A stretch of 64,000 nucleotides of DNA, taken from assembly GCF_013122565.1 (NCBI RefSeq), contig NZ_CP053258.1; one strand, written 5' to 3'. The position numbers and the translations under genes were made by a program. This stretch comes from Escherichia coli. GTDB lineage: Bacteria > Pseudomonadota > Gammaproteobacteria > Enterobacterales > Enterobacteriaceae. The notes under the pieces are model-generated. The model searched no databases, was not told the DNA's origin, and worked only from the letters and a program-made list of their open reading frames with translations. Each line of letters starts with the position of its first letter. Position 1 is the first letter of the stretch. Of the stretch, positions 10,948 to 13,524 are shown in pieces.

Positions 10948-13524
10948 TCAGAACAATTCCTGTGCCTCGCCATTATCGATAATGGTCGTTCCCACCTCGT
11001 GCACCGCCTGTTGTGTCGGCTGCGTACCTTCGATGAAATACTCTTCGCGGCTGTTGCCACCATTAGCTAACTGCCCGGTGCTGCGATCGATATTCACCGT
11101 CACAATACCCGGTGGCGGCGTCAGCGGTTGTTCCGGCACACCTTCAAGAACGACTTTCATATAAGCGTCCCATGCAGGCTGGGCACTCTTGGCACCGCCT
11201 TCGTAACCTGAGATCTGATCTTTAATCGCTCCGGAAGCCGTTGTATGACCGAGATTACGACGGTGATCATCAAAGCCAATCCAGACCGAGGTCACAACGC
11301 CCGGACCGTAACCCGAGAACCACGCATCTTTCGAACTGTTAGTGGTCCCGGTTTTCCCGCCGATATCGCGACGCTGCAAATCACGACCTGCACGCCAGCC
11401 GGTACCCTGCCAGCCTGGTTCACCAAAAATATTGGTGTTCAAAGCACTCTTAATCAGGAATGCCAGCGGAGTGTTGATGACGTGCGGTGCGTACTCCTGC
11501 GCGCCAGTCTTCGCCACTAACGCCTGATTTGCCTGCTCCAGCTGCGGCATTGGTACAGAAACATTCTGCTGCTCGCGGGAGATAGCGACATCTTCAACAT
11601 CGTTATTTTCCAGCACGTTCGATTTCTGCGTATCACCGTAAATCACTGGAATATCGCATTCCGGGCAGGCTACTTTCGGTTTCGCTTCGAAAATCACGCC
11701 ACCCTGATCGTTTTCAATTTTGCTGATAAACCACGGGTCCACCAGGAAGCCGCCGTTCGCCATGACCGCGTAGCCGCGCGCCACCTGCATTGGGGTGAAG
11801 GACGCTGAACCCAGCGCCAGCGATTCGGTGTGGACAATGTTTTGTGCCGGGAAGCCGAAGCGTTGCAGATATTCTGCAGCGTAGTCGACGCCCATCGCCC
11901 GCATTGCGCGTACCATCACCACGTTTTTCGACTGACCCAGCCCCTGACGTAAGCGAATTGGACCGGCATATTGTGGCGGCGAGTTCTTCGGCTGCCAGTC
12001 AGAACCGGCACCTGCATCCCAGCGGGAAATTGGCACATCGTTCAACATACTTGCCAGCGTCAGACCTTTATCCATCGCCGCGGTGTAGAGGAACGGTTTG
12101 ATGTTGGAACCCACCTGACGCAGTGCCTGGGTGGCGCGGTTAAACTTGCTCTGATTGAAATCAAAGCCACCGACCAGCGCCATAACGGCACCATTTTGCG
12201 GATTGATCGACACCAGCGCCGAGTTCACTTCCGGCACTTGTGCCAGCCACCATGCATCGCCGACCTGACGAACCCAGATTTGCTGTCCCGTTTGCAGAAC
12301 ATCGGTCACTTTACGCGGCGTCGGTCCCTGCTGAGTATCCGAACGGTAAGGACGCGCCCAGCGAACGCCGTCCATACTCAATGCGACAGTCGACCCGTCC
12401 GCCAGCATTGCCGTCGCTTCCTGAGGATTGGCGCTGGTGACTGCGGCAGGCAGCAGCGGACCATAGGTCGGCAGCGCCTTCAGCGTATCGGTAATCTTGT
12501 TGTTATCCCACGCCGACTCGCCCACTTTCCACAGCACATTTGCCGGGCCGCGATAGCCGTGGCGCATGTCGTAGTCCAGCACGTTATTACGTACCGCCTG
12601 CTGCGCGGCCTGCTGCACTTTGCGGGTGATGGTGGTGTAAATGCGATAACCGTCTTCATAGGCGCTTTCGCCATAACGGTTATACATCTCCTGGCGCACC
12701 ATTTCGCTCAGGTACGGCGCAGAGAAAGCAATCTCCGGCGCGTGATAGTTAGCGTTAATCGCCTCAGTGCGTGTCTGATCGAACTGTTGTTGGGTGATAT
12801 ACCCTTCATCCAGCATCCGCGACAGCACGACGTTACGCCGCGCGACGGCACGATCCATCGAGTAGAGCGGGTTGAAGGTGGAAGGCGCTTTCGGCAGCCC
12901 GGCTATCACCGCCATTTCGTTCAGCGTCAGTTGGTCGACCGTTTTTCCGAAATAGACTTGTGCCGCAGCACCGACACCATAGGCGCGGTAACCAAGGTAA
13001 ATCTTGTTCAGATAAAGCTCGAGGATCTCGTCTTTCGTCAGCAGCTGTTCAATGCGAATCGCGAGGAAGACTTCCTTAATCTTACGCATCAGCGTGCGTT
13101 CTGGACTGAGGAAGAAGTTTCTCGCCAGCTGCTGGGTAATGGTACTTGCCCCTTGTGACGCGTGACCGGAGAACAGCGCCACGCTTGCTGCACGGAAGAT
13201 CCCCACCGGGTCAACGCCGTGATGCTCGTAGAAGCGGCTGTCTTCTGTCGCGATAAAGGCTTTCACCATCTCCGGTGGGATTTGATCCAACGTAACCGGA
13301 ATACGACGTTTCTCACCGTATTGAGCAATCAGCTCGCCATCGGCGCTGTAAATCTGCATCGGAATTTGCAGGCGAACATCTTTTAATGTCGCCACATCCG
13401 GCAGTTGTGGCTCGATGTAGCGGTATAGGCCATAAATCGAGCCTGCTCCCAGCAGAATGCAACAGACTGCAAGGATCAAAAAATACTTTACGAACTTCAC
13501 TGGAAATTTCCCATTTAGTTTCAT
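10948..13524 (-). CDS. mrcA: Penicillin-binding protein 1A (bifunctional glycosyltransferase/transpeptidase)
   Basis: ORF-track 858 aa; GT51 motifs (EDSRFYEHHG) and transpeptidase SxxK/KTG motifs; the annotated start may instead be the in-frame GTG 8 codons downstream (at 13500). Confidence 0.9.
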   Translation of the reverse strand: MKLNGKFPVKFVKYFLILAVCCILLGAGSIYGLYRYIEPQLPDVATLKDVRLQIPMQIYSADGELIAQYGEKRRIPVTLDQIPPEMVKAFIATEDSRFYEHHGVDPVGIFRAASVALFSGHASQGASTITQQLARNFFLSPERTLMRKIKEVFLAIRIEQLLTKDEILELYLNKIYLGYRAYGVGAAAQVYFGKTVDQLTLNEMAVIAGLPKAPSTFNPLYSMDRAVARRNVVLSRMLDEGYITQQQFDQTRTEAINANYHAPEIAFSAPYLSEMVRQEMYNRYGESAYEDGYRIYTTITRKVQQAAQQAVRNNVLDYDMRHGYRGPANVLWKVGESAWDNNKITDTLKALPTYGPLLPAAVTSANPQEATAMLADGSTVALSMDGVRWARPYRSDTQQGPTPRKVTDVLQTGQQIWVRQVGDAWWLAQVPEVNSALVSINPQNGAVMALVGGFDFNQSKFNRATQALRQVGSNIKPFLYTAAMDKGLTLASMLNDVPISRWDAGAGSDWQPKNSPPQYAGPIRLRQGLGQSKNVVMVRAMRAMGVDYAAEYLQRFGFPAQNIVHTESLALGSASFTPMQVARGYAVMANGGFLVDPWFISKIENDQGGVIFEAKPKVACPECDIPVIYGDTQKSNVLENNDVEDVAISREQQNVSVPMPQLEQANQALVAKTGAQEYAPHVINTPLAFLIKSALNTNIFGEPGWQGTGWRAGRDLQRRDIGGKTGTTNSSKDAWFSGYGPGVVTSVWIGFDDHRRNLGHTTASGAIKDQISGYEGGAKSAQPAWDAYMKVVLEGVPEQPLTPPPGIVTVNIDRSTGQLANGGNSREEYFIEGTQPTQQAVHEVGTTIIDNGEAQELF

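Follow-up and report, generated by a model that had tools for sequence, protein, structure and literature searches.

Two in-frame codons could open the mrcA (PBP1A) reading frame in the 64,000-nucleotide stretch of Escherichia coli DNA analysed here (hereafter the window), and the question is from which of them the protein is made. The listed open reading frame lies on the minus strand at 10948..13524 and comprises 858 codons when counted from an ATG at 13524-13522; a GTG at 13500-13498 (the strand reads ...gcccaaATGaaactaaatgggaaatttccaGTGaagttcgtaaagtat...) is in the same frame, 24 nt or eight stop-free codons further in. Read by codon, the minus strand runs ...TTTATAAACTGCCCAA-ATG-AAA-CTA-AAT-GGG-AAA-TTT-CCA-GTG-AAG-TTC-GTA-AAG-TAT..., its long translation is *TAQ-MKLNGKFPVKFVKYFLILAV..., and an in-frame TAA (13536-13534) is located 12 nt upstream of the ATG. 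The N-terminus across both starts can be written M-KLNGKFP-V/M-KFVKYF. An earlier note on this DNA had read the frame as MKLNGKFP-VKFVKYF, with starts at ATG 13524 and GTG 13500, and both its coordinates and its translation were exact; its further point, that the choice of start alters the cytoplasmic tail by eight residues, likewise holds. Close in-frame pairs of start-type codons are frequent by chance, and the mrcA pair is real and statistically unremarkable. The features concerned are as follows.

10948..13500, minus strand: mrcA (PBP1A) coding sequence from GTG, 850 codons plus stop (open reading frame, translation, RefSeq/MG1655 start mapping, NF008643)
13498..13500, minus strand: GTG initiation codon, the best-supported start (81/81 Enterobacterales, orthologues L084 and L085, onset of codon periodicity)
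13501..13524, minus strand: eight-codon in-frame 'extension' MKLNGKFP, most likely non-coding 5' leader (conservation pattern, no anti-SD pairing)
13477..13479, minus strand: TTG codon 8, a third annotated start (843 aa), not credible (BED38630.1; poorly conserved, no SD)
13620..14399, plus strand: hofM, divergent neighbour, with ATG 13620 and a strong SD, AAGGAG (annotation, SD duplex)

Gene identity and recorded starts

The gene was identified as mrcA with the NCBIfam model NF008643, whose score of 1884.5 bits is well above its cutoff of 1263. Profile positions 1-850, the whole length of the model, align with residues 9-858 of the long open reading frame, so that the eight extra residues fall outside it. 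In MG1655 (b3396, 3522871..3525423, NP_417855.4), as in the RefSeq/PGAP annotation of the identical strain, the coding sequence starts at the GTG and encodes 850 aa. The start proposed in the earlier note, with a protein beginning MKFVKYF at the GTG, is therefore the one found in NP_417855.4, in PGAP and at position 1 of NF008643 (residue 9). The version number of the protein record (.4) indicates that the mrcA record was revised.

In public collections, one 90% protein cluster contains 850-aa, 858-aa and 843-aa versions, the 850-aa version being the majority. The 858-aa version is represented by a K-12 allele (P0016) on 232 contigs (e.g. EFJ66262.1) and by Salmonella ABX23911.1. The 843-aa version stems from one deposited E. 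coli annotation (BED38630.1, P0011), which starts at the TTG of codon 8 and begins MILAVCC. The start ambiguity is thus already on public record and curated sources have settled it; the mrcA case is an ordinary and already known annotation ambiguity. Residue numbering and the design of N-terminal tag constructs depend on the right start, whose use also curbs the spread of the 858-aa and 843-aa variants in databases; beyond such annotation hygiene, the choice matters little.

Positions 13200-13800 are 100% identical to E. coli NZ_CP110511 and were matched in 5425 of 5426 complete genomes, identifying the window as E. coli. Around both starts, a 60-nt stretch (13486-13545) is the same in 5423 of 5426 E. 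coli records, K-12 included, and the few residue differences between the mrcA allele of the window and that of K-12 (P0016/L083) lie elsewhere in the protein. ATG 13524 is therefore fixed within E. coli; because species diversity is low and the neighbouring bases are constrained, this fixation is weak evidence either way.

The length of the tail in the wider family was considered as a discriminator and was uninformative. With the N-terminus of the long form as query, an exhaustive search showed that the three nearest 50%-cluster representatives begin MKFVKY; among distant homologues the annotated tail varies in length, most often exceeding that of the 850-aa form by four residues, and the 858-aa form is compatible with this spread. 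The N-terminus of E. coli PBP1A is included in no solved structure. N-terminal proteomics, the check suggested in the earlier note, is intrinsically hard, because the 858-aa and 850-aa forms both begin Met-Lys and yield the same tryptic dipeptide MK, and because with lysine-blocked digestion the N-terminal peptide of the 850-aa form extends through the membrane helix to Arg27.

Conservation of the start region in the Enterobacterales

The start region was compared in 81 sequences, consisting of the window and 80 loci from species-representative Enterobacterales genomes (a single scan), which range from E. albertii and Citrobacter to Yersinia, Serratia, Rahnella and Pantoea. A GTG occupies the position equivalent to 13500 in 81/81; since these sequences are phylogenetically related, this and the following counts are counts of species, not of independent events. 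At the codon equivalent to ATG 13524 (codon -24), 28/81 have ATG, 12/81 TTG and 9/81 GTG (49/81 start-type codons), and 32/81 have some other codon, including TGA in two. E. albertii has GTG here, not ATG. E. coli, most Citrobacter, Salmonella, Kosakonia and Phytobacter carry the ATG equivalent, which elsewhere is absent or out of frame. In 33/81 no in-frame start of any kind occurs upstream before a stop, and those species must use the GTG.

The two TGA codons at -24 belong to Klebsiella spallanzanii and to Serratia sp. PL17 (L062); in the latter, the upstream sequence is offset by one base from that of the other species. In Klebsiella spallanzanii and Buttiauxella the ATG is shifted by one base and opens a dead-end frame of three to four codons, and Serratia oryzae reads ATG-ACA-TGA. 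A conserved upstream AUG in whatever frame was also considered and was rejected, as 47/81 lack any ATG between -28 and -18.

Column conservation by codon position (positions 1/2/3) was as follows.

Eight 'extension' codons:.846/.782/.864
Coding-sequence codons 31-240: about.94/about.97/.60-.66

The second codon position is the least conserved in the extension, the reverse of the coding pattern, indicating that coding periodicity starts at the GTG. By codon-position conservation in the 81 sequences, no sign was found that the extension evolves as protein-coding sequence, and the two starts are not both conserved among orthologues. Where the ATG exists, the encoded peptides are MKLNGKFP, MPLNGKSP, MTLNGKSP and MKLNGNPP, with radical changes at residue 2 (K/T/P) and residue 7 (F/S/P). 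The conserved 'LNGK' simply mirrors a nucleotide motif, which is just as well conserved where the ATG is missing. Two more distant orthologues (L084 and L085, ∼68% identity), which have kept the divergent PilM/hofM neighbour, also begin GTG-AAG; in one of the two, a gene caller had run the open reading frame 23 codons upstream, the same type of error. Comparative data across the Enterobacterales thus favour, independently of annotation, the GTG start that the earlier note had chosen. We conclude that mrcA is very probably translated from GTG 13500, the conserved, sufficient and curated start, and we infer from the sequence comparisons that its use in E. coli is exclusive.

Ribosome-binding signals, leader and promoter

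Three further elements on the minus strand were defined upstream of the GTG.

13506..13516, minus strand: conserved AAATGGGAAAT motif with the weak SD GGGA at 13512-13509 (conservation and 16S duplex)
13553..13581, minus strand: predicted mrcA promoter, TATCAA (13581-13576), 17-nt spacer, TATACT (13558-13553) (phylogenetic footprint)
13526..13568, minus strand: non-coding block of 43 nt, almost invariant (column conservation of 95% or more in the 81 sequences, 13544 and 13536 excepted)

The GGGA precedes the GTG by 8 nt (5-8 nt by duplex alignment), and pairing of the 16S 3' end with AUGGGAA before the GTG was calculated at -4.2 kcal/mol with near-optimal spacing. The corresponding anti-SD duplex is absent before ATG 13524 (+0.9 kcal/mol) and amounts to -0.7 kcal/mol before TTG 13479, the value for hofM being -10.3 kcal/mol for comparison. 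The ATGGGAAAT motif (13514-13506), at positions -14 to -6, is 90-100% conserved in the 81 sequences, and both L084 (cAGGGAAtatccgGTG, with AGGGAA) and L085 (tAGGTAttttcagGTG, with AGGTA) have a G-rich element at an identical offset. Folding of the leader gave z-scores of +0.83, +0.24, -1.27 and -0.54, indicating no significant structure; with these unremarkable scores and no match to an Rfam family, no RNA element was detected in the leader. A thermodynamic ranking of the starts did not separate ATG from GTG: in a crude Salis-type sum (SD plus start codon minus unfolding), ATG 13524 and GTG 13500 fall in one weak range.

The GTG of mrcA is 119 nt from hofM. In 79/80 species a TATACT is found at a distance of exactly 52 nt to the GTG, preceded 17 nt upstream by TATCAA, TATCCA or TACCAA, and L085, at 68% identity and with diverged surroundings, has the same hexamers at the same spacing and the same distance to the GTG. 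This footprint points to TATCAA-N17-TATACT as the mrcA promoter, which a consensus promoter scan left unflagged because of its poor -35 match. Transcription would then start near 13546, giving a leader of ∼46 nt with ATG 13524 ∼22 nt inside it. An alternative -10 element, TATAAA/TAAACT (13538-13531), would put the 5' end of the transcript on the ATG or no more than 2 nt from it and so produce a leaderless mRNA; this is the less probable arrangement, given the identical distance of TATCAA-N17-TATACT from the GTG in the 68%-identity orthologue and the lack of conservation of the ATG triplet. An entry for mrcA or its coordinates was not found in the transcription start tables of Kim 2012, Cappable-seq and SMRT-Cappable-seq; several of the files consulted on transcription starts and initiation sites are probably incomplete.

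Conservation of the 43-nt block in the mrcA-hofM intergenic region exceeds that of coding third positions, and the block ends one base (13525) before ATG 13524. Inside the gene, the first 17 nt of the coding sequence are invariant in 81/81, synonymous sites included, and no other run of 9 nt or more within the first 720 nt is invariant. Unusual conservation (.80, compared with.60-.66 further in) also marks the third positions of codons 7-30. Cameron and Redfield (2006, PMC1635313) placed the pair of CRP-S sites belonging to the hofM (yrfD) promoter within this part of mrcA. Their EMSA amplicon corresponds to 13343-13469 of the window, and a scan with the CRP-S core motif gave sites at 13355-13370 and 13436-13451. 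Overlapping hofM regulatory DNA would be a plausible cause of the constraint on synonymous sites.

Taken together, we propose that the 30S subunit would be positioned by the weak but positionally conserved SD GGGA in an A/U-rich, essentially unstructured leader, and that GTG 13500 would be read as fMet to give an 850-residue PBP1A with a short cytoplasmic tail, MKFVKY, followed by the membrane anchor FLILAVCCILLGAGSIYGLY. A GUG codon combined with a weak SD would fit a low-abundance enzyme. ATG 13524 is a lineage-specific in-frame triplet, most likely in the variable part of the 5' leader; it makes the mechanical 'longest ORF' eight codons longer and has misled some annotations.

Alternative starts and comparison with known systems

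AUG is an intrinsically stronger start than GUG, and several points speak against use of the GTG only: the upstream codon is an AUG, in frame and with no stop before the GTG, and although it has no SD (+0.9 kcal/mol), it lies in an unstructured, A/U-rich leader and has a crude-model rate similar to that of the GTG. In E. coli and the other lineages that carry the ATG, initiation might occur mostly at the GTG and in a minority of cases at ATG 13524, resulting in a minor 858-residue PBP1A with a longer and more basic tail. We consider this unlikely, and the overlap of the crude energy ranges is the main reason for leaving it a small share of the probability. The ATG is fixed in 5423 of 5426 E. 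coli records and would be inside the mRNA if the promoter is that predicted above; moreover, initiation at upstream in-frame sites exists in E. coli, a Ribo-RET preprint (10.1101/520783) having reported 6 of them in BW25113 and 36 such sites in BL21. However, neither the upstream codon nor the peptide that it encodes is conserved, and fixation within E. coli carries little weight for the reasons given above. An mrcA entry was also not found in the initiation-mapping texts and supplements consulted, to which the limit on completeness given above applies (TRAINSPOTTER N-terminomics, the Ribo-RET preprint, TetRP with its supplements (PMC4909307), Salmonella riboproteogenomics and Giess 2017). It is equally improbable that E. 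coli and those Citrobacter, Salmonella and Kosakonia lineages with the in-frame ATG make two PBP1A proteoforms that differ by MKLNGKFP (two additional lysines), possibly in a condition- or promoter-dependent manner; if so, the class A PBPs known to have two isoforms of the cytoplasmic tail would include PBP1A beside PBP1B. A native-locus fusion of PBP1a to an entire fluorescent protein is in use as a working allele (PMC7002073). If, as is reportedly the case, the fusion is N-terminal, eight extra residues would be unlikely to alter function.

Translation from the GTG might also be coupled to a five-codon mini-ORF (ATG 13514 GGA AAT TTC CAG TGA 13497) whose stop overlaps the start as GTGA and would permit re-initiation. 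Consistent with this, the -14 triplet is ATG in 79/81 and GTG in 2/81 Enterobacterales, T-13 and G-12 are 100% conserved, beyond what an SD alone needs, and the frame always has five codons and ends in the GTGA overlap. But no SD precedes its ATG (-0.8 kcal/mol), and L084 and L085 lack the mini-ORF, retaining in its place just a G-rich motif that resembles an SD. The TGA follows necessarily from the conserved Met-Lys codons, and with only four sense codons between ATG and TGA the absence of an earlier stop is uninformative. Coupling is very unlikely. Still less can be said for ATG 13524 as the sole true start, with the GTG as an internal valine codon: this reading has in its favor the longest open reading frame, an AUG codon and the 858-aa database versions (the P0016 allele and ABX23911.1), yet it would leave the 33/81 species without an upstream in-frame start unaccounted for, invariance of the GTG in 81/81 is not to be expected of an internal valine codon, the ATG shows neither an SD nor coding periodicity downstream, and both curated annotation and the NCBIfam model contradict this reading, so that we regard it as extremely improbable. 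The probability is smaller again, and close to nil, for the TTG at 13479, for which the 843-aa record beginning MILAVCC can be cited. The codon is TTG (third base G) in only 29/81 species and has no SD, its crude rate estimate is ∼17-fold below that of the GTG, and starting there would cost the gene its first 17 nt, which are fully invariant, and the protein its Lys-rich cytoplasmic tail; lack of conservation effectively refutes it. Initiation at GTG 13500 remains the preferred reading.

The situation at mrcA resembles that of the E. coli genes whose starts were re-annotated between U00096.2 and U00096.3 (95 genes in the 2014 K-12 record, PMC4909307), in which in-frame NUG codons likewise occur within 60 nt and with which it shares the longest-ORF bias. 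For mrcA/PBP1A of E. coli K-12 (b3396), which is the same gene with identical 60 nt around both starts and an annotated GTG start, nothing relevant differs. With leaderless, 5'-terminal-AUG initiation, mrcA has in common an SD-less AUG just downstream of a -10-like element, whereas the favored -10 (TATACT) places the mrcA ATG ∼22 nt inside a leader. N-terminal proteoform pairs that arise from alternative in-frame initiation, both starts being experimentally supported, are known for PBP1B alpha/gamma (mrcB), ClpB and IF2. PBP1B alpha/gamma shares with the mrcA case two in-frame starts in a class A PBP whose forms differ only in the N-terminal cytoplasmic segment. In contrast to PBP1B alpha/gamma, ClpB and IF2, the upstream codon of mrcA is a candidate start with neither an SD nor conservation.

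Conservation between mrcA and hofM

Comparison of the window with 80 other Enterobacterales species delimited a conserved non-coding block in the region separating mrcA from the divergent hofM gene:

13526-13568 and 13574-13581, mrcA-hofM intergenic region: GGCTTGCCTTTATACTACCGCGCGTTTGTTTATAAACTGCCCA(A), defined by conservation across the 81 sequences

Conservation of this block reached at least 95% in the 81 sequences, exceeding that of coding third positions. Both the TATACT hexamer and a GC-rich CCGCGCG stretch lie within it, as do a 10-bp palindrome, GTTTATAAAC (13532-13541), and the 21 nt 3' of the predicted transcription start site, which are invariant. 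In a 68%-identity orthologue, only the TATC(A/C)A-N17-TATACT portion of the block is kept. Neither tRNA nor tmRNA genes were found across the window (1-64000), and no Rfam family reached the gathering threshold over the same interval.

Between the block and the hofM SD sequence lies a perfect 8-bp inverted repeat (ACCCGTCA / TGACGGGT, 3-nt loop, 13583-13601), part of a segment that differs among species. In the mrcA and the hofM transcript alike it would form a hairpin.

Mini-ORF and alternative annotated starts

Two further features concern mrcA initiation:

13497-13514, minus strand: out-of-frame mini-ORF, ATG GGA AAT TTC CAG TGA (MGNFQ*)
13477-13479, minus strand: TTG at codon 8, a third mrcA start, chosen by one deposited annotation for E. 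coli

The mini-ORF opens with ATG in 79 of the 81 Enterobacterales sequences and with GTG in 2, and its stop shares bases with the mrcA start (GTGA), an arrangement by which its translation could conceivably be coupled to that of mrcA. The mini-ORF is missing from both more distant GTG-start orthologues compared, and is probably merely the SD region.

The TTG start gives the 843-aa E. coli protein BED38630.1 (N-terminus MILAVCC). Codon 8 is not conserved, being TTG in 29/81 sequences, and it lacks an SD. In another 68%-identity orthologue (L084 601-672; metagenome contig ERZ16274030 NODE_58), the ATG picked by the gene caller lies 23 codons 5' of the conserved GTG-AAG-TTC; this 878-aa call and the 858-aa E. 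coli version represent the same longest-ORF error.

Constraint on early mrcA codons

Conservation is also pronounced at the 5' end of the coding sequence:

13410-13500: constrained mrcA 5' stretch, first ~30 codons

Nucleotides 1-17, GTGAAGTTCGTAAAGTA, showed no variation in 81/81 species, five synonymous sites included, and third-position conservation was.80 at codons 7-30 versus.60-.66 deeper in the gene. This constraint may come from overlapping regulatory DNA. The promoter of the divergent hofM gene has published, Sxy-dependent CRP-S sites that fall within this part of mrcA (PMC1635313).
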